DNA of 64,000 nt, from assembly GCA_003557725.1 (NCBI GenBank), contig PWNQ01000041.1, forward strand, positions 8,481 to 72,480. The letters are read 5' to 3'. Source of the stretch: Bacteroidales bacterium. GTDB lineage: Bacteria > Bacteroidota > Bacteroidia > Bacteroidales > PWNQ01. This document shows, piece by piece, positions 1,035 through 63,702 of the stretch. Each line of letters starts with the position of its first letter. Within the stretch, counting starts at the first letter, position 1. A program made the translations under genes and the position numbers. The notes under the pieces are model-generated. The model was given only the letters and a program-made list of their open reading frames with translations, was not told where the DNA came from and did no database searches.

Positions 1035-1121
1035 ATACTATTGAGTCCAGTCTAAAAAGGTCACATTTGATTCTTCAGCGGCTCCGATTAATTAGTATTT
1101 TTAAACCGGACGCAATAGTAT
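1035..1121. repeat. Short internally deleted derivative of the same repeat family (imperfect 87-bp palindrome)
   Basis: The left arm atactattGAGTCCAGTCTAAAAAg matches the reverse complement of the right arm (atttttaaaccggacgcaatagtat) at about 21 of 24 positions. The interior ttgattcttcagcgg matches the TGATTTTCAGCGG box. Confidence 0.5.
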
Positions 1122-2720: not shown

Positions 2721-5075
2721 ATGAAGAATAAGTGGTATATATACATAGCATCCATTTTGATGGTCCCATTCATAATGGGGTCTTGCAATAATGCACGCCG
2801 GCTCCCTGAAGGGTCCTGGTTGCTTACTAATAATGATGTGCGCGTCCATAATGAACACCTGGACCCTGATGCCAGAGTAGACCGCCATATCAGGCAAAAG
2901 CCCAACCGGACCACTTTGGGCTTTATACGGTGGCACCTGACTCTGTATACCCTGGGAGAGGGAATGAAAAGAGACACACGGGTAAAAAACTGGCTGATGG
3001 AAAGTGTTGGGGAGTCACCCGTAGTTCTGGATACAGCCATGGCAGATCATTCTACCCGCCAAATGGAATACTATCTGGAAAATATAGGTTTTTTTGACGC
3101 TAATGTGGAGTATTCGGTTGATTATAACAACAATAATAAAGCCACGGTAATATATCATATATATGGTAACAGGCCTTATCGGATTAGAGAAGTTACCTAT
3201 CTTGCCGAAGACACTTTATTGTTGCCGGTGATCAAAGAGACCATGGAAAACACCCTCCTGGAACCGGGAAGCGTATTTGATACCGACCGTTTTGATAAGG
3301 AGCGTAATCGCATTACCGGCTATCTCCGTAATAACGGATACTATTATTTCAATAAGAATTTTATTACCTTTCGGGTGGATTCAACCATGAAAGGCAGGAA
3401 TCTGGATGTTCAGCTCCAGGTCAATAACAGGGTATTCAGGTCACAGTTGGATAATGACAGCCTTATACCATTGCCACACCGGAAATATACGGTGGGCAAG
3501 GTGTATGTGTATCCCGAATATGATCCATTGAAAGATGAAGAGTTGGTTTATGATACATTGATTATTAGTACATCAAAAGGGGATTATCACTTTTTATTCA
3601 CGGATGACCTTCCTTACAAGCCCAATTTTTTGACCCGGTTTATCTTTGTCAGGCCCGGGGAGTATTATAATCTGGAGGACGTTCAAATGACCAACAGTCG
3701 GCTGGCCTCTTTAAGGCAGTTTCGTTATGTCAATGTGGCTTTTAGCGAGCGAAATACCCAAATGAGGCCGTGGCACAGAGACACTTTACCTCATGTGTTG
3801 GATTGCCATATCCGGCTTACAAGATCAGAACCACAGCATTATACCATTGAATGGTTGGGGAAAAATACGGCCAGGGATCTGGGAACGGAATTTAGTCTTA
3901 CCTATGGCAACAGTAACCTGTTCCGGGGGGCGGAGTTGTTCAATGTGAGTGCAAACCTTTCTGCTGAGATGCAGCAAATTATGGGGGAAATGGATAGCAG
4001 GCTTATTGGCGACCTGCTCCCTTTTAACACCCTGGAGCTGGGGGGAAATGCTACCCTGGAGCTGCCAAAGTTTCTTATTCCCGTCGACCAAAGCAGGTTG
4101 CCACACTATTTTAAACCTCGTACCACCCTGTTTGCAGGATATAGCTACCGGGAAAGGCCCGATTACCGGAGGCATCTGTTTAATGTTTCTTTCGGATACC
4201 GGTGGGATGAGTCGCAAACCAAACAGCATCAACTCACCCCTATAGACATCAGCGCCATTAAGCTACATCCGGACGCCGCCTTTCAGGAGCGACTGGAGAG
4301 TATCGATAATCAAAGACTTACAGCGGCATATCAGGACCATCTCATCGTTGGCATGAAGTATACATTCTTGCTAAATACCCAGGCTCAGCGAAGTAACTAT
4401 CCTGACTTTTGGTTCCTTAGAGCCAATGCAGAGTTGGCGGGAAACACCCTGCACCTTGCCAGGTCGTCCCTGGGGGGAGAGAAAAATGAAGAAGGAAGTT
4501 ATGAGGTTTTTAATATCCGATATGCTCAGTATTTTAGAGTTGATCTGGACTTCCGGTATCACTACCGTTTAAATGATTATAGCACTGTGGCAACCCGTTT
4601 TGCTGTTGGAGCAGGGTTTCCCTATGGGAACCTTAATGTGCTCCCTTTTGAAAAAGGGTTCTTTGTGGGAGGGGCTAATGGGATCAGGGCATGGCCCGTG
4701 AGATCACTGGGCCCCGGTGCCTACAGCGGAGCGGGGACTTTTATGGACCGAATCGGTGACCTGAGCCTGGAGACAAGCCTGGAGTACCGATATCCCATTT
4801 ATAACTTCTTTCATGGAGCACTATTCCTGGATGCGGGAAATATCTGGCTGAAAGATAAAAATGAAGACTTTCCTCTGGGGCACTTCCAGGCCCAGCGCTT
4901 TTTTAAACAACTGGCAGTGGGAACCGGAACAGGAGTGAGGCTGGACTTCTCCTTCTTTGTGATCCGGGTGGATATGGGAGTGAAAATGATTGACCCCGCT
5001 CAACCGGAGGGACAGAGATGGGTGCTGGGGGACTTTAATACCAACTTTAACTTTGGGATCGGATACCCATTTTAA
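2721..5075 (+). CDS. Omp85/BamA-family outer-membrane lipoprotein (TamL-like)
   Basis: Lipoprotein signal MKNKWYIYIASILMVPFIMGSC. C-terminal Omp85-type barrel with a G/aromatic-rich end (GANGIRAWP, LDAGNIW, terminal GIGYPF). ATG at 2721 is preferred over TTG at 2709. Confidence 0.7.
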   Translation: MKNKWYIYIASILMVPFIMGSCNNARRLPEGSWLLTNNDVRVHNEHLDPDARVDRHIRQKPNRTTLGFIRWHLTLYTLGEGMKRDTRVKNWLMESVGESPVVLDTAMADHSTRQMEYYLENIGFFDANVEYSVDYNNNNKATVIYHIYGNRPYRIREVTYLAEDTLLLPVIKETMENTLLEPGSVFDTDRFDKERNRITGYLRNNGYYYFNKNFITFRVDSTMKGRNLDVQLQVNNRVFRSQLDNDSLIPLPHRKYTVGKVYVYPEYDPLKDEELVYDTLIISTSKGDYHFLFTDDLPYKPNFLTRFIFVRPGEYYNLEDVQMTNSRLASLRQFRYVNVAFSERNTQMRPWHRDTLPHVLDCHIRLTRSEPQHYTIEWLGKNTARDLGTEFSLTYGNSNLFRGAELFNVSANLSAEMQQIMGEMDSRLIGDLLPFNTLELGGNATLELPKFLIPVDQSRLPHYFKPRTTLFAGYSYRERPDYRRHLFNVSFGYRWDESQTKQHQLTPIDISAIKLHPDAAFQERLESIDNQRLTAAYQDHLIVGMKYTFLLNTQAQRSNYPDFWFLRANAELAGNTLHLARSSLGGEKNEEGSYEVFNIRYAQYFRVDLDFRYHYRLNDYSTVATRFAVGAGFPYGNLNVLPFEKGFFVGGANGIRAWPVRSLGPGAYSGAGTFMDRIGDLSLETSLEYRYPIYNFFHGALFLDAGNIWLKDKNEDFPLGHFQAQRFFKQLAVGTGTGVRLDFSFFVIRVDMGVKMIDPAQPEGQRWVLGDFNTNFNFGIGYPF

Positions 5076-5092
5076 TTTTCCGGGAGGTTATT

Positions 5093-5680
5093 GTGAACAG
5101 TGAAAAATTTAATATCTGCTTTCTTCGTTCTTACCCCTATGAGCCTACTCAGGATCAGGTAAAGGCCATATACATTCTATCCCGTTTTATTTTTACGCTC
5201 AGGGAGCGGCCGCTTTTTGTTCTTAAAGGGTATGCGGGAACGGGTAAAACGTCTATAGTCAGTACATTGGTTAAGGTTCTCCCTGTAGCCGGGCAGAAAT
5301 CCGTTTTGCTGGCACCTACAGGAAGGGCTGCTAAAGTGCTAAGCAGCTACTCCGGAAAGCCGGCAACCACTATTCATAAACGAATCTATTATACTGCACC
5401 AACCCCCGAGGGAGGGATGCAGGTAAGCCTTCAGGTCAACCGCTTTAAAGACACTATCTTTGTAGTGGACGAGGCATCCATGATCCATGATAACAGCCAT
5501 GAATCCGGCGGCTTTGAGGGAAGGAGTCTGCTGGATGACCTTATCCGCTTTGTTTATAATGGACCAAATTGCAAGCTGGTCCTTATCGGCGACGAAGCCC
5601 AGTTGCCTCCGGTAGGGGCAGAGCTTAGCCCTGCCCTGGATATGGAATGGCTTAAACGATCCTTTTCACTCACCGCATGA
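5093..5680 (+). CDS. RecD-like SF1 helicase, N-terminal fragment (Walker A domain), ends at an in-frame TGA
   Basis: GYAGTGKTS Walker A and VVDEASM Walker B (AAA_30-like). Ends at TGA 5678-5680, in the same frame as the next ORF. Confidence 0.7.
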   Translation: MNSEKFNICFLRSYPYEPTQDQVKAIYILSRFIFTLRERPLFVLKGYAGTGKTSIVSTLVKVLPVAGQKSVLLAPTGRAAKVLSSYSGKPATTIHKRIYYTAPTPEGGMQVSLQVNRFKDTIFVVDEASMIHDNSHESGGFEGRSLLDDLIRFVYNGPNCKLVLIGDEAQLPPVGAELSPALDMEWLKRSFSLTA

Positions 5681-8355: not shown

Positions 8356-10221
8356 TTATTGTGATTTATAGATGACCAATTTGCCACTTTGGCTTTTACT
8401 TATTCCTGAATCAGTGCGAATGGTGGCTCTGTATATATACATGCCTCCTTTTACAGGTGTTCCGGAAGCGCTTCGCCCGTTCCACTTTAGGGGGGACACG
8501 GAGTATCCGTCAGGAGCCACATCTGTTTCAAGGGTTTCTATAAGTTGCCCATCCAGGCTGTATATTTCAACCTGGAATGTCACTGTGCTCCGTGCCTGGT
8601 TATGGTCAAAGGTAAACCATACTTCCCCGTCGGAAGGGTTGGGGTAAGCGGTAAGGTTTTTCAGGGCCACCTCTTCAGAGTGTGTTACCACAAACTGGAT
8701 GGTGGCTTCATTGGAGTTATTATAGATATCCCACACCTTGAGGCGAAGTTGATGTTGTCCACGGGGAAGGTTATGAAAAGGGTAGCGGATGGTCCCCCGG
8801 GTAAAGTCATCCAGGTCTGCTTCATAATAGTCATTCAGCACAAACTGTTTCAGGGTGTTATCTTCAAGGATAAGCGTGGCAACAATATCATGGCCTATGC
8901 CACTGCCCACGGCATTGATGCCATGTTCATCAAAAACCCGGGCCAGTAATATGGGGTTTTGGTCGGTAATGCCTCCGGAGATAAAAGAAAAATCGTTCAT
9001 ATATAATTCGATACCTGGACCGGTGGTGTCAACAACGGCACTGTCGCTGGTTCCCCCAACAATGAAGTTATTATAATACCCGTTGGCATCACTCACTCCA
9101 TCCTCAGCATAATAGCTTATGCGCCCGTGACCATAATTATAGGAAATGTCTTTGGGCACAATAAATGAAAAAGTGAACCGGCCATCGGTAACACTGGCCT
9201 TGCCCTTAAAGAGAATATTGTCGTACTGTTCAAATTCAAAAGGGGAGCTGCCGGGGTCCTGTCCCATGGTGGTATGTCTGCTTTTTTTATCATAGACGGT
9301 AGGATAAAGGTAGCCATTAAAGCTGCTGTCAATGCTCCCGTCGTTCCGGGTGATCTTTCCTGAAACGGTAACGTGTGCCAATGCCTTTAAGGTGTCCGTA
9401 ATGCTGGTATCCAGTCCGTTGATGGAAGTGGTGACCACTTTTTTATCCGGGATGGCGATGGGCAGGGCAGGGTTTCCCAGTAAAACATAGTTGCGCAGAC
9501 CGGAAATGGAAGGGGCTTCCGTTTTGGTGAGGCGCATAATGTCCCCCATTCGGAGGTGGCTTCCCTTTTTTCTCCGGAAAAGGTTATTATAAAAGGCATT
9601 GGAAAAATTCATGTTATTGCCGGTGTGGGTAACTCGGGTAGAGGAGATCAGGGTGATGGGTCCGCCACCGGGTTGATGAAATGCAATCTCTCCAGCCGAT
9701 ATACGGGCCGGGTTATCAAAAGGAGAAAACTCGCAGGTGGCAGTAAAAATGATGGGCATGCTGTACGTATTAGACCAGTTGCGAATGTCCTGAATGCGCA
9801 ACACTTCTTCATGGGCCCAGCCCGCCGGCCCGCCATGCCCAAAATAGTGCATTACCAGGGCCCCCCTTTGCATCTGCTCATTTATGGCATTGTTCACGCC
9901 GGGATAACGTTGTCCCCCGGGGGTGGTGACTTGCTGATAGGCATCGAAATAAATCTTTCGCACATTGATCTCCGGCTGGTGGATGTTTAGCTTGTCTGCC
10001 AGTTGCTCTGCAGAAATAACATGAATATTATTGTCTTCATCATCTGCAACCAGGCACACCACATTGCGCCAGTCGGCCAGAGGCTTCTGCAGGGAAGGGT
10101 CCATACGGATATCCGCACTTATGGAAGCAGTATCCATATTCAGATATCGCCTCATCTTGGTGATGGCCTGACGGGCTTGTGATACCGTTCCCGCAGGAAT
10201 ACGCCCAACTCCAATGTCCAC
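8356..10221 (-). CDS. porU: T9SS C-terminal signal peptidase PorU, C-terminal fragment (downstream of the in-frame TAG)
   Basis: Same frame as ORF 10243-12249. Contains the second half of the C25-peptidase-like region (VGRIPAG, HYFGHGGPAGWAHE, FTATCEF) and a C-terminal CTD-like beta domain (LTAYPNPSDGEVWFTF...GMYIYRATI). Confidence 0.75.
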   Translation of the reverse strand: MDIGVGRIPAGTVSQARQAITKMRRYLNMDTASISADIRMDPSLQKPLADWRNVVCLVADDEDNNIHVISAEQLADKLNIHQPEINVRKIYFDAYQQVTTPGGQRYPGVNNAINEQMQRGALVMHYFGHGGPAGWAHEEVLRIQDIRNWSNTYSMPIIFTATCEFSPFDNPARISAGEIAFHQPGGGPITLISSTRVTHTGNNMNFSNAFYNNLFRRKKGSHLRMGDIMRLTKTEAPSISGLRNYVLLGNPALPIAIPDKKVVTTSINGLDTSITDTLKALAHVTVSGKITRNDGSIDSSFNGYLYPTVYDKKSRHTTMGQDPGSSPFEFEQYDNILFKGKASVTDGRFTFSFIVPKDISYNYGHGRISYYAEDGVSDANGYYNNFIVGGTSDSAVVDTTGPGIELYMNDFSFISGGITDQNPILLARVFDEHGINAVGSGIGHDIVATLILEDNTLKQFVLNDYYEADLDDFTRGTIRYPFHNLPRGQHQLRLKVWDIYNNSNEATIQFVVTHSEEVALKNLTAYPNPSDGEVWFTFDHNQARSTVTFQVEIYSLDGQLIETLETDVAPDGYSVSPLKWNGRSASGTPVKGGMYIYRATIRTDSGISKSQSGKLVIYKSQ

Positions 10222-10242
10222 GTTCCCACTGGCATTAGAACC

Positions 10243-12249
10243 CTACCCAGGGGCATATAAACCAAAAAAATCATCCGAAACAAAACTGCCTATGGGGGAA
10301 AGTGAACTGGAAGACTGAAAGGTAAGAATGGTGGCCTTATCATAATTGTTCCGGTTTTTTGGATCATAATTGCCGTCACCCAGCAGCAGCAGATACCCCG
10401 GCATTTCATCCGGAGTGGTAGCACGATCATAAAACATGCGCATGAAATTGCGGATGGCTGAGATATCTTGCTGGCCGGAGGAAAACTCATTGTAAATTTC
10501 TGAAGGAGTAACCACATGTACCACCATGTCGTCCATGTCTCTATGTAAATCAGCAATCTCCTCTGCAGGATCCAGCAGGTCGGGGTGGGTAACGATCACC
10601 ATTTCAGGTTGCGGAAGCCCGTGAAGGTTTTGATTCTTTACAGTGCCTGTATGGTGCGGGCTATGATAGCTGTTTTTATGTGCAATAAACTCCCGAAGGG
10701 TATCTGCAGATGCCACAAAGGAAAAGGTGCTTCCGGATACCTGTCCGTTAATTGCCTCAGGAAGCACCGGATTGGTAATATCCCAAACCTGTAAACCCGG
10801 TGATGCTCCGGAGATGGAGTACTGTGCGATATTGCCATCACCTGTGACTGAAACATCCCGGAACTGAAGTTGTTTGTTATTGAAAAACAGATTTTCACGG
10901 GCGTGAACCTGAATAAAATCCATCCAGCCAACGGCAGAGGGCTGAGGCTTTTGATAAGATACATTCATATTGATACTCCCCGGGCTGAGAGATAGTGAAA
11001 AAGTATCTGTCACACTTTGGGCATAAAGGGAGGTATAAGTATCGGTGATGGAACTAACCAAAAAGGTACGGGTGTTTCCCTGGATATCCACTTTAAAAGC
11101 AGAAGCTTGTGTAGATCTGGCTGCCATGGATACGCGAAACTTTACGGGGTGGGATGGATCCAGATCCGGAAAATAAAAAGGGTAGGCATAACTGGTGATG
11201 ATATCAAATACATCCCCGAAAAAGCGCCGCCCACTATTTAGCAGATTGATGGAATCCTTTTCGTGGAAACGGTAACTGTCATATGTGTGGGTGGTTACAT
11301 TGGGAGGCCCCGGAGCAGAAGGCTTTTGTGATATCCGCTTACCCGGGCTTTGGTTGTAGGTAAGATAGTAATACGCATGGTCGTCATATTCATGCTTATG
11401 GTGCAAAAAACGCTCCAGGTTTTCATCGTAGGTCCATTCTACAGGACCCTGGGCATAAAACAACAAGTAATCCCCCGGGCTAAAGGTCCCGGGAGTAGAC
11501 GTGGACACATAAATGGCATTTTCCAGCAGATCATCAGCATGAGGTTCTGAATTATTGTAGGGCAACTGATTCCCTCCATTTCCAAAAATCTGCAGTTGGG
11601 AAGGATCCAGGCCGGAAGCATCAATGCCATAGCCTTCCAGATCACCATAGGTGATTTGGTAAACCCCCGATTGGGATATCCGAAGCTTATGCCAGGGTCC
11701 TTTGGCCAGAACCGACTCATCCACATATTGATAGATATTGCGCTGGGCAACTATTTCATCCGGATTAAAAATAATCTGATAGCTGAAAGACTGTAATAGC
11801 TTAACCGAGTCGCCGCAAAGAGATAGCTTAGCGGGGGCAAGCATAAAATAACCAAAAGCTTGCTTGCGAATGGAGTGGGTTTCTGTAGTGAGCTGAATAC
11901 CATAGGTGAGCTCCTCAACTCCGCGGATGCTGGAGAAATGCTTAATGGGTATGGATTGAAATACCGTATCGCTTAGGATCACCTCCATGGAAAAATCGGA
12001 TGACGGCAGGGGAAGCCGCTCTGAATAGTAGGGAAGATGATGGTTGTCAAAGTCATAATCCGACCCCTTGAAGGATAATACATCAAATGAGGCCAGGGTA
12101 TCATCACCCGGAGTAATTGTTTTTACCGGGTCCCAGTTAAAAGATTTATAGGAAGCGTTTTGCCCGTGTAGAAAAAACGGAGCCAGGAAAAAGAAGGCAA
12201 ACAAAATAGCTGAGGTCCCAAATGCAGGGATATTGTTTTTTTCTCTCAT
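10243..12249 (-). CDS. porU: T9SS C-terminal signal peptidase PorU, N-terminal fragment (ends at the in-frame TAG 10243-10245)
   Basis: Signal peptide MREKNNIPAFGTSAILFAFFFLAPFFLHGQ. PorU-type N-terminal region and the start of the gingipain/C25-like domain (YLLLLGDGNYDPKN, SDDFFGL). Stop TAG is followed in frame by GSNASGNVDIGVGRIP. Confidence 0.75.
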   Translation of the reverse strand: MREKNNIPAFGTSAILFAFFFLAPFFLHGQNASYKSFNWDPVKTITPGDDTLASFDVLSFKGSDYDFDNHHLPYYSERLPLPSSDFSMEVILSDTVFQSIPIKHFSSIRGVEELTYGIQLTTETHSIRKQAFGYFMLAPAKLSLCGDSVKLLQSFSYQIIFNPDEIVAQRNIYQYVDESVLAKGPWHKLRISQSGVYQITYGDLEGYGIDASGLDPSQLQIFGNGGNQLPYNNSEPHADDLLENAIYVSTSTPGTFSPGDYLLFYAQGPVEWTYDENLERFLHHKHEYDDHAYYYLTYNQSPGKRISQKPSAPGPPNVTTHTYDSYRFHEKDSINLLNSGRRFFGDVFDIITSYAYPFYFPDLDPSHPVKFRVSMAARSTQASAFKVDIQGNTRTFLVSSITDTYTSLYAQSVTDTFSLSLSPGSINMNVSYQKPQPSAVGWMDFIQVHARENLFFNNKQLQFRDVSVTGDGNIAQYSISGASPGLQVWDITNPVLPEAINGQVSGSTFSFVASADTLREFIAHKNSYHSPHHTGTVKNQNLHGLPQPEMVIVTHPDLLDPAEEIADLHRDMDDMVVHVVTPSEIYNEFSSGQQDISAIRNFMRMFYDRATTPDEMPGYLLLLGDGNYDPKNRNNYDKATILTFQSSSSLSPIGSFVSDDFFGLYAPG

Positions 12250-12356
12250 GGTTCTGCTAATATTATGCCTGTGGTATTCAGGCGCAGATTAAAAAATACC
12301 TAAACCGGATGGTTGATAAATATAATATTTGCTGTAAAATTTCGGTTGTTATTATT

Positions 12357-12507
12357 GAGTCCAGTCTAAAAAGGTTACTTTTGATTTTCAGCGGCTTTTT
12401 GCCCCAGACCCTAAAGGGTGAAGCCGCTGAAAATCAGCCACCCTTTAGGGATGGGGCAAAGCTGATTTTCAGCGGATGTGAAAAATGTGTGTTTTTAGAC
12501 TGGACTC
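12357..12507. mobile_element. Complete copy of a MITE-like palindromic intergenic element (~151 bp)
   Basis: Perfect 16-bp terminal inverted repeats: GAGTCCAGTCTAAAAA (12357-12372) and TTTTTAGACTGGACTC (12492-12507). Flanked on both sides by ATTATT. The interior has a long hairpin (GCCCCagaCCCTAAAGGGTG / CACCCTTTAGGGatGGGGC) around CCGCTGAAAATCA, and TGATTTTCAGCGG occurs twice as its complement. Confidence 0.6.
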
Positions 12508-12766
12508 ATTATTTGATTTAATGGGTTGTTAACAATTGGCTGACGGTGCTGGTCAAACAGGAAACAACACCGGAGGTAGTCAGCGCTTAATAAAAAGCAA
12601 GATGTTAAAAAATGACTATTCTATTGTACCGGGTTGTGTCTGTATTTTGCACATTATACTAATAACCATCGAGACGGTTTTTTTATTGTATATCACTGAA
12701 AAAACCTGGTGGCAGCCTTTTTGTAACATTTTTGTTTGGGTGCAAGTATAAGTGAGATAAAATGCT

Positions 12767-12774
12767 TATTTTTG
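12767..12774 (+). promoter_or_regulatory. -7 box TATTTTTG upstream of the PorP/SprF-gldJ genes
   Basis: Exact TAnnTTTG match 81 nt upstream of ATG 12855. Confidence 0.4.
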
Positions 12775-12854
12775 TGGGGTAAAAAAGGGTGTTTTTTATC
12801 CCGTTATCAAAAAATGTTGTATTTTTGGAGTTTGAAAAATCATGGGTAAATAAT

Positions 12855-13844
12855 ATGCCACAAAAAGCACGTTTATTAATACCAATAATAGTAATTTTAT
12901 TGGCAGGACAAGAGGTTCGGGGGCAGGATCCGCATTTTTCCCAGTTCTATGCCAACCCGTTGTATCTGAATCCGGCATTTGCGGGGAGCAATATTTGTCC
13001 CCGATTGACTACCAACTACAGGAATCAATGGCCGGCCATTTCAGGTGCTTATGTAACCTATAATGCAGGGTTTGACATGTATTTTGATGCTATTTCCGGG
13101 GGATTGGGGCTTTTAGCTTACTCGGACCGTTCAGGTGAGGGGGTGCTTAGCTCCTCTCAGTTTAGCTTTATGTATGCTTACCGGCTGAAAGTGTCCCGAA
13201 CCTTCAGCATAAATGCGGGGCTGCAGGCCAGCTATTTTCAGAAGTCGGTGGACTGGACCAAGCTTACATTCGGTGACCAGATTGACCCCCAGTGGGGATT
13301 TGTGAATCAAACCAGTGAAGTGGGCGGCACCTACGAATCCAGTGGAGCAGATTTTTCTGCAGGATTATTGGGGTATACCAATAACTTTTTTATTGGAATT
13401 GCTGCCCATCACCTGACAGAACCAAATGAAGGGTTTAGAAATTACAGTGAGTTGCCCCTTAAGCTTACCGTGCATGGAGGATACGACATTGAACTGGGGG
13501 GTGGGCCGGCAAGACAATATCGGGCTGGAGACTTGGTGCTGTCGCCGAATATAATGTATATGCAACAGGGACAGTTTCACCAGCTAAACTATGGATTGTA
13601 CCTGAACATGAAGCCTATCCTGGCAGGACTATGGTACAGGCAATTCTTTGAAGGCTCCGATGCACTTGTTGTAATGGCTGGATTTGAATATGAAAAGTAT
13701 AAGTTTGGATATAGTTATGATATTACCGTTTCCAGGCTGAGTAATGCCTCCGGCGGAGCGCATGAAATATCGATGATGTTGAAATTCAACTGCCCTCCGG
13801 AACGCGTCAGACTACGGGAAATCGAATGTCCATCCTTCTTCTGA
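12855..13844 (+). CDS. PorP/SprF-family T9SS outer-membrane protein
   Basis: Signal peptide, then the family signature QDPHFSQFYANPLYLNPAFAG. About 330-aa barrel. ATG at 12855 is preferred over GTG at 12789. Confidence 0.85.
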   Translation: MPQKARLLIPIIVILLAGQEVRGQDPHFSQFYANPLYLNPAFAGSNICPRLTTNYRNQWPAISGAYVTYNAGFDMYFDAISGGLGLLAYSDRSGEGVLSSSQFSFMYAYRLKVSRTFSINAGLQASYFQKSVDWTKLTFGDQIDPQWGFVNQTSEVGGTYESSGADFSAGLLGYTNNFFIGIAAHHLTEPNEGFRNYSELPLKLTVHGGYDIELGGGPARQYRAGDLVLSPNIMYMQQGQFHQLNYGLYLNMKPILAGLWYRQFFEGSDALVVMAGFEYEKYKFGYSYDITVSRLSNASGGAHEISMMLKFNCPPERVRLREIECPSFF

Positions 13845-13896: not shown

Positions 13897-15753
13897 ATGA
13901 AATATATGGGATTTCTTAAAAGCTTCATGTTATTGACAACAGCAATCCTCATGGTGGCCTGCGGGTATGAGCGCTCACCCACAACCGGGTGGAACTACAA
14001 TGACCCTCAAAGCGGTGGCTTTGAAAAGCAGCCATTTATGGAACAAGTGACTGGCCCGGGGCTGGTGCTTATTGAGGGTGGACGCTTTACCATGGGACGA
14101 ACGGAGCAGGATGTAATGTTCGATTGGGATAATATCCCCAGAACAGTTACCGTGCCTTCCTTTTACATGGACCAGACCGAGGTGAGAAACTTTGACTATC
14201 TGGAATATCTTTACTGGTTAAAGAGAATCTTTGGCGATCGGTACCCCACCGTTTATGAAAGGGCACTGCCGGATACCAATATCTGGAGAGAAAAATTGGG
14301 CGAAAGAGAACAGTATGTGAGGTATTATCTGAGGCATCCTGCTTACAGGGACTATCCTGTGGTGGGGGTAAACTGGATACAGGCATCCAACTATGCGGCC
14401 TGGCGGACCGACCGGGTCAATGAAATGATCCTGGTGGAATTGGGCTTTATGGAGCGAATTCCCGATCAGGCCAATGAAGAACATTTTAATACGGAGGCCT
14501 ATCTGGCAGGACAGTATGACCTGGGGGTGATCCGGGAAAGCATGGTTAACCTTGACCCCAATGCTCCGGATGACCGGCTGGTGCGTATGGAGGACGGAAT
14601 ACTGCTCCCCGCATACCGCCTCCCAACAGAAGCCGAATGGGAGTTTGCTGCCCTGGGGCTTATTGGAAACACCATCTATGAAAGAGTGGTGGAAAGAAGA
14701 ATTTATCCCTGGAATGGGCATATCACCAGAACTAGTGCTAAAGAAAGCTATGGCGACTTCGTGGCCAACTTCCGCAGAGGAAGAGGAGATTATATGGGTA
14801 CTGCCGGATATCTTAATGATGCAGCCTCCATTACGGCTCCCGTTTATGCCTACTGGCCTAACGATTATGGCTTGTACAATATGGCAGGAAACGTGTCTGA
14901 ATGGGTACGCGATGTATACAGACCTCTCTCTCACGAAGACATGAGCGACTTCGCTCCTTTTAGGGGGAATGTGTATACGGTGCAGGCACGAAGCAGCTTT
15001 GGAGGATTGCAGCCCAAGCTGGGGTTTGTTATGTGGGACTATAGCGCTATTATTGACTACCTGAACGACTATCAGCAAATCTCCCGAGAACTTAACGATA
15101 TCAATGAGCATGAAGAAATGCTGATCACATATTTGAAGCAGTTTGCCATTGGTGCCGATAGCATGGCAGACATCAGCCGACATGAAGATGCGTCTATCCT
15201 TATGGAGGACGGATTGCTGGACTTTACCGGAAAAAGCCCCAGACCCAATACGGATGAAGCCAACGCTACAGAAGCAGAACTGGGGGTTAATATGGCCAAT
15301 GACTTTGATGAAATGCAGGTGAGGGATGAGAATATTATCACCATCCAGGCGGTTATAGCACAATATATCGAGGCTAGCCCCGGGGAAATTCAAACCAGAG
15401 CCGTTACGGTTCAGGAAAACCTTGACCGCCGAAACTATCGCAAAGCTGATAATATCAACTACAAAGATGGAACCTATACCACGGCTCCAGGCGCCACATG
15501 GGACCAGCGATCTGATGTGGCTGACCCCGACAGAAGCTACACCGACCAAATGTATGACTATCCTGAAGAAGAAAATATTGGAAGCTCCCTGATCAACGAC
15601 CGGGTGAGGGTTAGAAAAGGCGGATCATGGCGTGACGGAGCCTACTGGATGAGCCCGGGAACACGACGGTTCCTCCTGGAAACGCAACGAAGAGACGACC
15701 TGGGTTTCCGCTGCGCAATGGATCGCGTGGGAAGCCCCATCGGAACCTATTAA
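13897..15753 (+). CDS. gldJ: Gliding motility lipoprotein GldJ (FGE-sulfatase-like fold)
   Basis: Lipobox LMVACG. GldJ-like sequence (MVLIEGGRFTMGR, FYMDQTEVRNFDY, YPVVGVNWIQASNYAAWRTDRVNE, RKGGSWRDGAYW, FRCAM). It sits next to murF, an adjacency I recall from other Bacteroidota. Confidence 0.85.
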   Translation: MKYMGFLKSFMLLTTAILMVACGYERSPTTGWNYNDPQSGGFEKQPFMEQVTGPGLVLIEGGRFTMGRTEQDVMFDWDNIPRTVTVPSFYMDQTEVRNFDYLEYLYWLKRIFGDRYPTVYERALPDTNIWREKLGEREQYVRYYLRHPAYRDYPVVGVNWIQASNYAAWRTDRVNEMILVELGFMERIPDQANEEHFNTEAYLAGQYDLGVIRESMVNLDPNAPDDRLVRMEDGILLPAYRLPTEAEWEFAALGLIGNTIYERVVERRIYPWNGHITRTSAKESYGDFVANFRRGRGDYMGTAGYLNDAASITAPVYAYWPNDYGLYNMAGNVSEWVRDVYRPLSHEDMSDFAPFRGNVYTVQARSSFGGLQPKLGFVMWDYSAIIDYLNDYQQISRELNDINEHEEMLITYLKQFAIGADSMADISRHEDASILMEDGLLDFTGKSPRPNTDEANATEAELGVNMANDFDEMQVRDENIITIQAVIAQYIEASPGEIQTRAVTVQENLDRRNYRKADNINYKDGTYTTAPGATWDQRSDVADPDRSYTDQMYDYPEEENIGSSLINDRVRVRKGGSWRDGAYWMSPGTRRFLLETQRRDDLGFRCAMDRVGSPIGTY

Positions 15754-24868: not shown

Positions 24869-25618
24869 ATGATAATTAATGCTGTAATTATTGATGATGA
24901 AAAGCACTCCCGGGCCACTTTGCAAGACATGATCCAGGAGTATTGCCCTGAAGTTCACATCGCCGGAATGGCTGATGGTTGTGAATCAGGAGTAGAGATC
25001 ATTGAAAAATGTAAACCCGGACTGGTGTTTCTGGATATCCAGATGCCTGATGGAAGCGGTTTTCGTGTGCTGGAGCAAACCAAAGAGAGAAACTTTGAGG
25101 TGATCTTTACCACTGCATACGACTCCTTTGCCATTAAAGCATTTAAATATAGTGCGCTGGATTACTTGCTAAAGCCAATTGACGGAATAGAACTGCAGAA
25201 TGCCGTGGAAAAAGCCGTGCAAAGAAAAACCAACTCCTCAGGAGCCGCCGTGGAAATGCTACTGGAAAACCTCAAACGGAAAGAAAAACCCGGAAAGATC
25301 GTGCTGTCCACCTTTAAAGGCCTGCACGTAGTGGAAATCAGTCAGATTGTCCGGTGTAAAAGTGAAGATTATTATACCCGGTTCTTCTTTAAAGATAAAA
25401 CAGAACTGCTTGTATCCAAAACACTTAAAGAGTACGAAAGCATCCTGGAAGATCATCAATTTATCAGACCACATAAATCACACCTTATTAATATAGAGTT
25501 TGTAAAAAACTATATGAAATCTGACGGAGGGTATATCCTGCTTGCCGATGGTTCCAGAATACCTGTGGCCCGTAGAAAAAAGGACGGGATAGTTAAGTTG
25601 CTTAAAGAGCTTGAGTAA
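24869..25618 (+). CDS. LytTR-family response regulator
   Basis: Receiver domain (IIDDE, LVFLDIQMPDGSG, DYLLKP) with a C-terminal LytTR DNA-binding domain (FIRPHKSHLINIEFV, RIPVARRKK). Starts 20 nt after the kinase gene. Confidence 0.9.
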   Translation: MIINAVIIDDEKHSRATLQDMIQEYCPEVHIAGMADGCESGVEIIEKCKPGLVFLDIQMPDGSGFRVLEQTKERNFEVIFTTAYDSFAIKAFKYSALDYLLKPIDGIELQNAVEKAVQRKTNSSGAAVEMLLENLKRKEKPGKIVLSTFKGLHVVEISQIVRCKSEDYYTRFFFKDKTELLVSKTLKEYESILEDHQFIRPHKSHLINIEFVKNYMKSDGGYILLADGSRIPVARRKKDGIVKLLKELE

Positions 25619-25637
25619 CAAGGTGGCGGTTGCTGCT

Positions 25638-25742
25638 CCCAACGATAAAGGGTGAATCCGCTGAAAATCAGATGCAAATAAGGGTCCGGGGCAAAGTTTA
25701 TCTTCAGTAGATGTGAAAAATCTGTGCCTTTAGACCGGACTC
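25638..25742. repeat. 5'-truncated copy of the repeat family (right two-thirds, retains the right terminal repeat)
   Basis: TAAAGGGTGAAtCCGCTGAAAATCAG...GGGGCAAAG...CTTCAGtaGATGTGAAAAATcTGTGccTTTAGACcGGACTC aligns base by base with 12412-12507. Starts 20 nt after the LytTR gene stop. Confidence 0.55.
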
Positions 25743-25783
25743 AAGAGTAATAAGGTCAGTATGGAAGAGGACCATTTAATAAA

Positions 25784-25848
25784 CCCGGGGTGTTTTTTCT
25801 CAAATACTCTGGATAGATTTATATCTTTGCCGGGTGTTTTTTCAAATA
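25784..25848 (+). repeat. About 20-bp direct repeat CCGGG(G)TGTTTTTT(C)TCAAATA, two copies
   Basis: cccggggtgttttttctcaaata (25784-25806) and ccgggtgttttttcaaata (25830-25848). The copies flank the TATCTTTG box at 25822-25829. Confidence 0.4.
25822..25829 (+). promoter_or_regulatory. -7 box TATCTTTG between the LytTR gene and the acidic-protein gene
   Basis: Exact TAnnTTTG match. A weaker TATTTTTA at 25913-25920 lies closer to ATG 25952. Confidence 0.35.
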
Positions 25849-51285: not shown

Positions 51286-51315
51286 GGATGATTTCCAGCG
51301 AATGTGAAAAATTCG
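51286..51315. repeat. Possible fragment of the repeat family
   Basis: GGATGATTTCCAGCGAATGTGAAAAATTCG compared with GCTGATTTTCAGCGGATGTGAAAAATGTG (12461-12489). The match is about 30 nt only. Confidence 0.3.
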
Positions 51316-63502: not shown

Positions 63503-63630
63503 CATAGCCCCAAAGAAAACAAGAGTGAAAAGCTGAAAATCATTGCTTTATAATAAGAAGAGGCGCTGATTTTCAGCTTTTTGTTGCGTAGGCCGGCCTT
63601 GAATACTAAATTTACTTCCGCTGAAAAACT
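63503..63630. repeat. Degenerate copy of the repeat family
   Basis: GCCCCaaagaaaacaagaGTGAAaaGCTGAAAATCA ... GCTGATTTTCAGC ... CCGCTGAAAA shares the core boxes with 12401-12475, but the terminal repeats are not recognisable. Confidence 0.35.
63528..63585 (+). terminator. Repeat-derived hairpin with T tract after the SatP-like gene
   Basis: AAAGCTGAAAATCA ... TGATTTTCAGCTTT followed by TTGTT. The loop is about 24 nt, which is long for a canonical terminator. Confidence 0.4.
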
Positions 63631-63702
63631 ATGGTGGTTTTTTTTGAACAGCCTCAGTTGTTACCCTGTGACAAGGATGATGATAGTAACGGAAATGATG
63701 AT

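Follow-up and report, generated by a model that had tools for sequence, protein, structure and literature searches.

A 151-bp miniature inverted-repeat transposable element between porU and porP of a Bacteroidales genome shares its termini with IS1182-like insertion sequences

Bacterial MITEs (miniature inverted-repeat transposable elements) are sequences of 70-230 bp without coding capacity, which carry the termini of an autonomous insertion sequence and are flanked by a target-site duplication of fixed length. In addition, they combine strong secondary structure and an intergenic location with high copy number and internal deletion variants. The Correia elements of Neisseria, RUP of Streptococcus pneumoniae and the ERIC/IRU repeats of enterobacteria are representatives of this class, of which Correia and RUP elements duplicate TA. 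REP elements, on the contrary, are not known to possess terminal inverted repeats or target duplications and depend on Y1 (RAYT) transposases. For the insertion sequences of the IS1182 family, duplications of 0-60 bp are listed by ISfinder. MITEs of Porphyromonas gingivalis are also on record (PMC4596501). Here, we describe an element located at positions 12357-12507 of a 64-kb stretch of Bacteroidales DNA from contig PWNQ01000041.1 (the whole stretch of 64,000 nucleotides is referred to as the window), between the divergently transcribed genes porU and porP of the type IX secretion system (T9SS) and gliding machinery. The element is a MITE, i.e. a non-autonomous DNA transposon, and has all of the above properties in common with the known bacterial representatives. 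We are highly confident in this reading, according to which it would be mobilised in trans by an IS1182-like transposase and probably resides at this locus as a neutral passenger.

The element is 151 bp long and bounded by terminal inverted repeats of 16 nt, which are fully complementary according to both sequence reading and repeat search, while ATTATT is found directly outside of both ends. Since the copy displays the same asymmetry between left and right inverted repeat (IRL and IRR) as the insertion sequences described below, it runs from left end to right end on the + strand. Its constituents are listed here with the evidence for each; pairing percentages refer to alignment cells in 42 aligned copies of the family.

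12351..12356, no strand: left target-site duplication ATTATT (sequence and the family rule of 6 bp)
12357..12507, + strand: complete 151-bp MITE, running from IRL (left end, GGT side) to IRR (right end, CAC side) (repeats, nhmmer, IRL/IRR polarity)
12357..12372, + strand: left terminal inverted repeat GAGTCCAGTCTAAAAA, presumably the end recognised and cleaved by the transposase; the insertion sequences in L074, L071 and L027 have an identical IRL
12382..12397, + strand: box X1 TGATTTTCAGCGGCTT, can pair with X2 (repeats; 89.6% of cells paired, compensatory changes)
12398..12420, + strand: arm A of the internal hairpin (repeats, minimum-free-energy fold, pair counts)
12421..12438, + strand: central box X2 AAGCCGCTGAAAATCAGC, complementary to X1 and X3 (repeats, pair counts)
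12439..12460, + strand: arm A' of the internal hairpin (repeats, minimum-free-energy fold, pair counts)
12461..12475, + strand: box X3 GCTGATTTTCAGCGG, direct repeat of X1, 81 nt downstream (repeats; 90.4% of cells paired with X2)
12464..12507, + strand: right-end segment of 44 nt, apparently insertion-sequence-derived, includes box X3 (blastn to the L071 insertion sequence)
12492..12507, - strand: right terminal inverted repeat (repeat search)
12508..12513, no strand: right target-site duplication ATTATT (sequence and the family rule of 6 bp)

The interior is laid out as X1-A-X2-A'-X3, also written X-A-X'-A'-X. Direct copies of TGATTTTCAGCGG begin at 12382 and 12463, 81 nt apart from start to start, and the complement occupies 12424-12436. 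Pairing is perfect over 16 nt between 12382-12397 and 12421-12436 and over 15 nt between 12424-12438 and 12461-12475. Hence, the central box X2, being complementary to both X1 and X3, can pair with either flanking copy. The hairpin of A and A' extends over 20 nt at 75% pairing (12398-12417/12441-12460) and includes a perfect core of 12 nt (12409-12420/12439-12450). RNA folding yields -75.3 kcal/mol for the + strand (z = -9.2) and -71.4 kcal/mol for the - strand (z = -10.2). A scan of 12000-13000 against Rfam at E up to 10 returned generic hairpin matches to microRNA (miRNA) models and no family, the best match being a eukaryotic miRNA model with 25 bits compared to a gathering score of 93. The perfect 16-bp terminal repeats, an internal hairpin of about 20 bp, for which the arms 12398-12420 and 12439-12460 are now assigned, and a core box capable of pairing with either of two flanking copies had all been noted in the original prediction and are recovered here. 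Likewise, its view that the element lacks coding capacity, and that the 70-aa open reading frame (ORF) at 12309-12521 is an artefact, holds: this ORF starts outside of the element and therefore cannot be a family feature, it has no Pfam match, and the copy lengths in the alignment of 42 vary from 148 to 156 bp by indels that would break any reading frame.

Membership in a repeat family is evident from a profile of 42 members, which matches 12357-12507 over the full length with E = 2.5e-46 (nhmmer). Moreover, the terminal 16-mer occurs six times in the window at up to 3 mismatches, where 0.52 occurrences are expected, and none of 100 shuffles reaches six. Target-site duplications were assessed in 78 copies from about 30 metagenome-assembled genomes (MAGs), which are bounded by terminal repeats, have both flanks readable and were taken from the window and 119 further loci (designated by L numbers). 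Of these 78 copies, 49 are flanked by exact direct repeats of 6 bp or more (6 bp in 47 and 7 bp in two), and 56 qualify if one mismatch within the 6 bp is allowed. When flanks are re-paired at random, on the other hand, the count averages 1.2 and does not exceed 6. Within the 47 hexamers of exactly 6 bp, position 1 is A in 40 and position 6 is T in 42; the target is AT-rich throughout and roughly conforms to A-W-N-W-W-T. The ATTATT of the window, formerly a candidate target-site duplication, fits this motif and follows the 6-bp rule of the family. These statistics are read as direct evidence of transposition, with cuts that would be staggered by 6 bp.

Insertion sequences with the same terminal repeats were found as well. 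Four full-length ones of 1.96-1.98 kb share both the terminal repeats of the MITE and their left/right asymmetry:

L074 (Omnitrophota MAG), 307-2290: insertion sequence, 1984 bp
L071 (Ignavibacteriaceae), 150-2109: insertion sequence, 1960 bp
L027 (Bacteroidota), 3650-5621: insertion sequence, 1972 bp
L120 (Lentimicrobium), 128-2101: insertion sequence, 1974 bp

In these elements, the end that precedes the transposase gene carries AAAAAGGT and the opposite end AAAAACAC, an asymmetry that is shared by the MITE. Each of the four contains one ORF of 572-597 aa. The products in L074, L071 and L027 match the Pfam families DUF772 (PF05598) and DDE_Tnp_1_6 (PF13751) above the gathering cut-offs, and the recorded Pfam matches of the L120 ORF name the same two families. 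Judged by these domains, the partner enzyme appears to be a DDE transposase of the IS4/IS5/IS1182 type. The ORFs of L074, L071 and L027 align with the IS1182 model of NCBIfam (NF033551) at E = 1e-33 to 1e-40, from profile positions 35-38 to 487 of 488, yet score 116-137 bits and thus far under the curated cut-off of 270 bits. For this reason, the partner is termed IS1182-like and not a member of the IS1182 family. Among annotated plasmid proteins, the best relatives belong to IS1182-family and haloarchaeal transposases with 23-28% identity, and on such similarity the partner would constitute a distant, unnamed branch related to IS1182. No solved structure related by sequence to the transposase was found.

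The likeness between MITE and insertion sequence extends beyond the terminal repeats. Positions 108-151 of the MITE, i.e. its last 44 nt including X3, align at 79.5% identity with the 44 nt that close the right end of the insertion sequence in L071 (blastn, E = 1e-6), and at the left end similarity reaches roughly 26-40 nt. The right-end match supports a derivation of the MITE from such an insertion sequence. In metagenomes, the transposase is represented by 1,757 clusters at E <=1e-20, mostly on stand-alone contigs of about 2 kb. A tblastn search of the transposases against the window and the earlier set of loci matched only L027, L071, L074 and a fragment in L037.

Comparison of orthologous loci, which were reached through the closest protein relatives of GldJ, revealed that the insertion is polymorphic. 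The second member of the 90% cluster of GldJ provides a close relative (L121 and L122; Logan runs SRR32456884 and SRR32456895), which is collinear with window positions 3549-25885 at 74-83% nucleotide identity but contains zero family copies in an nhmmer search at E up to 10. The 427 bp of the window that include the MITE (12250-12677) correspond to 93 bp in L121, and the region 25618-25813, which includes a truncated copy of the family, to 66 bp. The element is absent from the porU/porP locus in L002, L003 and L005 as well, the GldJ proteins of which are 71-74% identical; the MAG of L003 holds a 70-bp family member elsewhere, on another contig (L115:1116-1185). As the immediate flanks are not alignable in L121, these data establish presence versus absence and not a base-perfect empty site. 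In the MAG BLK3-3.bin.221 (GCA_046484255.1, locus L001; GldJ 74% identical), a copy is located upstream of porP and the contig breaks inside of it. This copy ends 53 nt before the conserved -7 box of porP, while the window copy ends 313 nt before it, and the two are probably independent insertions.

The surroundings of the insertion are variable in their own right: about 170 bp to the right of the MITE (12508-12677) and 107 bp to its left have no counterpart in L121, and the hypervariability of the upstream half of the porU/porP intergenic region does not depend on the MITE.

Beyond this element, the family is represented by numerous additional copies in the same genome as well as in related ones. 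A scan of 185,579 species-representative genomes with GAGTCCRGTCTAAAAASRY as query yielded at least 105 matching stretches, compared to about 70 estimated to arise by chance in the whole collection. The matches listed are concentrated in uncultured Bacteroidales, Lentimicrobiaceae, Ignavibacteriales, Calditrichota, Cloacimonadota, Chlorobiota and related MAGs, and often lie about 100 nt from contig ends. Together with contigs that are broken inside the repeat, this location is the signature of an assembly-breaking repeat. Besides its copy upstream of porP, L001 holds three more family fragments within 13 kb, and 80 copies or fragments were counted in 234 kb of BLK3-3.bin.221 contigs that had been chosen because they hold a copy. 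Nine terminal-repeat matches in viral contigs were discarded as chance, since all are single and none forms a terminal-repeat pair.

The same termini bound several unrelated interiors in different genomes, among them interiors of elements of 99, 110, 112, 131, 132 and 153-233 bp. Elements of the X-A-X'-A'-X type, about 150 bp long, are present in the genome of the window, in BLK3-3.bin.221, in Lentimicrobiaceae and in several other Bacteroidota MAGs, and versions of 173-192 bp bear extra GC-rich hairpins. A form of 71 bp, represented by 12 copies including one in the window (1043-1113), equals the 152-bp form minus exactly the 81 bp between the direct repeats X1 and X3, its junction reading ...TGATTTTCAGCGG|CTGTGATA...; it is a clean example of a short form made by deletion between internal direct repeats.

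Some variants deserve separate mention. In L099:4995-5148 (Lentimicrobiaceae), segment A has the opposite orientation between the inverted boxes X1 and X2, which is consistent with recombination between the inverted repeats of the element itself. Longer variants (L077:6980-7168, L102:5071-5243, L103:1597-1788 and L067:3960-4192) contain GC-rich hairpins of CCTGCCTGCC / GGCAGGCAGG-type motifs, which are encountered again in MITEs from different genomes and could represent a nested repeat of their own. An element of 295 bp in BLK3-3.bin.221 (L021:7626-7920), situated beside two copies of 151-152 bp, combines degenerate family termini with an unrelated interior; against the four insertion sequences, it gave no match of 30 nt or more. 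Between the genes for a Mur ligase and AnmK in L001, a 5'-truncated MITE copy is directly adjoined by GGAACACGGAACAA-like units in tandem array (4880-4940). Finally, a 132-aa ORF on the - strand of L086 (292-690) is located beside a 71-bp MITE copy. Its only match is an IS1595-type transposase zinc-ribbon (PF12760, 20 bits, below the cut-off), with no DDE domain, so that it may encode a truncated or domesticated IS1595-like protein. A pair of terminal repeats 1.6 kb apart in L086 was considered as an insertion sequence and rejected, as it consists of two separate MITEs around a thioredoxin-like gene.

In the window itself, the family profile detects three solid copies and one doubtful copy (nhmmer), all of which sit between ORFs. 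In addition to the complete element, these are:

1043..1113, + strand: 71-bp short form with degenerate right terminal repeat and no intact duplication (blastn, nhmmer)
25630..25742, + strand: 5'-truncated copy, profile positions 40-152, E = 4e-17 (blastn, nhmmer), directly following the stop codon of a LytTR response-regulator gene
63528..63655, - strand: degenerate, doubtful relic (nhmmer E = 0.0023 only)

Of the related copies listed in the original prediction, those now placed at 1043-1113 and 25630-25742 are sustained, while the one now placed at 63528-63655 is weak. The fourth, narrowed to 51289-51312, is unsupported: it amounts to a 24-nt similarity, is missing from the nhmmer results at E up to 10, and is best taken as chance.

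From these observations, we infer the following course. The ends of the MITE would stem from a 2-kb IS1182-like insertion sequence, with about 26 nt taken from its left end and about 44 nt from its right end, and the non-coding, strongly self-complementary X-A-X'-A'-X interior would have acquired box X from the subterminal right end of that insertion sequence. A DDE transposase supplied in trans would bind the terminal inverted repeats of 16-19 bp and insert the element into AT-rich A-W-N-W-W-T sites, whereupon cuts staggered by 6 bp and subsequent repair would leave the 6-bp duplication, ATTATT in the present case. The window copy would have landed in a variable, AT-rich part of the porU/porP divergent region, where its presence is most likely neutral or almost so. 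The MITE-like mobile repeat that had been proposed on the basis of the DNA letters is borne out by copy number, duplication, partner and polymorphism alike.

Several points weigh against this account. No such transposase was found in the 64-kb window or in the examined contigs of BLK3-3.bin.221, the closest MITE-rich relative (tblastn). The duplications of the four insertion sequences are imperfect or absent (5/6 in two of them, none in the third and one cut by the contig end). Furthermore, L121 does not offer a clean empty site, as about 100 bp of flank on each side are non-homologous as well. A precise empty site would here consist of ...GTTGTTATTATT joined directly to TGATTTAATGG, and the exact pattern TCGGTTGTTATTATTTGATTTAATGG has 0 matches in the JGI metagenomes. 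Lastly, the interior keeps its pairing potential between lineages via some compensatory changes, which a purely selfish, decaying element need not do.

To judge a possible influence on the neighbouring genes, the locus has to be considered. On the - strand, porU extends over 8356-12249 with its start at 12249, and the PorP/SprF gene (12855-13844) is followed by gldJ (13897-15753); the gap of 605 bp between the start codons of porU and porP (12249 and 12855) had been given correctly before. Bacteroidota promoters feature a -7 consensus TAnnTTTG, to which two boxes correspond:

12820..12827, + strand: -7 box of porP TATTTTTG, outside of the element and 35 nt ahead of the start codon at 12855 (matches the consensus; same distance in L001, L002 and L003)
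12317..12324, - strand: putative -7 box of porU TATATTTA (7 of 8 positions), likewise outside of the element, 75 nt upstream of the start codon and separated by 32 nt from the edge of the MITE (proposed from sequence)

The porP box lies within the only well-conserved stretch of the intergenic region and is intact. Upstream of porU, exact TAnnTTTG motifs are found 73 and 76 nt from the ATG in L002 and L003. The MITE adjoins the upstream edge of the putative porU core promoter, and its insertion may have pushed away DNA upstream in the promoter while sparing the core. A sigma-70 scan at the ends of the element gave nothing above shuffles, a scan that is ill suited to Bacteroidota promoters, and no canonical terminator is present at these ends. 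Within the window copy, 12376-12383 reads TACTTTTG, a perfect -7 consensus match that points into the element towards porP. As most copies have CACATTTG instead, it looks like the chance product of two substitutions.

Among the alternatives, the one that survives best is a MITE co-opted to act in cis, be it by blocking or terminating transcription, by stabilising RNA or providing a processing site, or through displaced upstream promoter DNA of porU. Such co-option is compatible with the very stable fold on both strands, with the left edge of the element lying 32 nt upstream of the putative porU -7 box, and with the second, probably independent copy upstream of porP in L001. It also draws on the pairing within the family, since X1:X2, X2:X3 and A:A' pairing amounts to about 90% across the 42 copies; in detail, the terminal repeats are paired in 95.8% of cells and the three segments of A:A' in 73-90%. 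Moreover, the types of BLK3-3 and the window on the one hand and of Lentimicrobiaceae on the other differ in a compensatory manner, e.g. GCGGCTT/AAGCCGC -> GCCACTT/AAGTGGC. These changes, however, represent one or two lineage-level events and are thus only modest evidence for selection on structure; an inverted-duplication origin of the boxes could explain them too. The genomic distribution of the family also speaks against co-option. Copies are intergenic in 75 of 77 cases, and 18, 25 and 12 copies reside in divergent, tandem and convergent gaps, which make up 29, 50 and 21% of the intergenic length. No context bias is significant; the copies track intergenic length. The orientation bias in tandem contexts (9 vs 2, a small sample) is not significant either. 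Taken together with the lack of a canonical terminator, the distance of 313 bp to the conserved porP promoter and the close relatives that manage without the element, this renders co-option unlikely. Nothing points to a selected cis-regulatory role, and the insertion may have a local side effect. A bolder version, in which the X-A-X'-A'-X core is a selected bistable structure preserved by compensatory changes among Bacteroidales lineages (a DNA cruciform or single-strand fold required by the transposase for efficient mobilisation, or a bidirectional RNA barrier or switch) and its insertion at the upstream edge of the porU core promoter altered the expression of the T9SS sortase in this lineage, is improbable in our estimation.

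A family of small structured RNA genes that merely resembles a transposon would likewise account for the strong fold and the conserved pairing. This is very unlikely, because the majority consensus, inspected by eye, contains no conserved TAnnTTTG (only the window copy has TACTTTTG), the fold is equally good on either strand, truncated copies and deletion derivatives are numerous, and Rfam provides no match. A locus-specific, immobile regulatory hairpin or riboswitch-like leader of porU/porP was suggested by the position in a divergent control region and by alternative pairings of the attenuator kind. This explanation is already refuted by the multi-copy distribution in the window and many genomes and by the absence from the orthologous locus in L121, L122, L002, L003 and L005; the 6-bp duplications, the location upstream of both promoters rather than in a leader, and the lack of an Rfam match add to this. 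Finally, a REP/BIME-type repeat mobilised by a RAYT (IS200/IS605-like Y1) transposase, though equally short, intergenic, highly palindromic and of high copy number, is contradicted by the long terminal inverted repeats, the regular 6-bp duplication and termini common to insertion sequences with a DDE transposase.

Two further observations concern the genes next to the element. A single in-frame TAG (10243-10245, - strand) splits porU within ...LYAPG*GSNASG..., and the 621 codons downstream remain open. At this site, L121 has Glu (LYAPGEGSNASG) and its PorU is intact with 1297 aa. The TAG in this T9SS sortase gene therefore reflects an error of assembly, a variant within the population or a nonsense mutation of very recent date. 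Just before the porP start, GATTGAAAAATCATGGGTAAATAATATG (12832-12857) is nearly invariant in L001, L002, L003 and L121, the GldJ proteins of which are 71-74% identical or closer. It contains a mini-ORF of three codons (ATG GGT AAA TAA) that ends just before the porP ATG, and may be a conserved leader or a feature of translational coupling.

For annotation, the identification of the MITE explains a conspicuous structured repeat and removes a spurious ORF of 70 aa. It also explains the positions at which contigs break in MAGs of these Bacteroidales, namely inside the repeat. Beyond this locus, a very abundant, unnamed insertion sequence of 2 kb and IS1182-like character is tied to diverse MITEs with near-identical termini, which occur in Bacteroidota, Ignavibacteriota, Calditrichota and other phyla. 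Such similarity across phyla suggests strong constraint on the ends or horizontal spread. As regards T9SS and gliding, conserved control of porU or porP should not be ascribed to the element.

In comparison with known systems, tens of thousands of Bacteroidota MITEs have already been catalogued in bulk surveys, of which a large one makes no mention of IS1182 (bioRxiv 10.1101/2024.01.18.576219). The terminal repeat sequence was not found in any of the papers searched for it. With REP/BIME repeats, the present family shares abundance, intergenic location and a palindromic nature with modular variants, but it differs by its terminal inverted repeats, its target duplication and its DDE partner. 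The partner, in turn, resembles the IS1182 family (NF033551) in its end-to-end profile alignment, the combination of DUF772 and DDE_Tnp_1_6, a length of about 1.97 kb with one ORF, and the presence of terminal inverted repeats. It departs from that family by profile scores far under the curated cut-off, by the low identity even to the best annotated plasmid relatives, and by a regular 6-bp duplication that is more uniform than the 0-60 bp known for IS1182. Relative to other MITEs, the terminal repeat sequence is a different one (GAGTCCRGTCTAAAAA), and the family duplicates 6 bp at A-W-N-W-W-T where Correia and RUP elements duplicate TA. Moreover, its partner is IS1182-like, and the same termini recur across several phyla of uncultured bacteria. 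The element is a new, unnamed member of a well-known class of selfish DNA.

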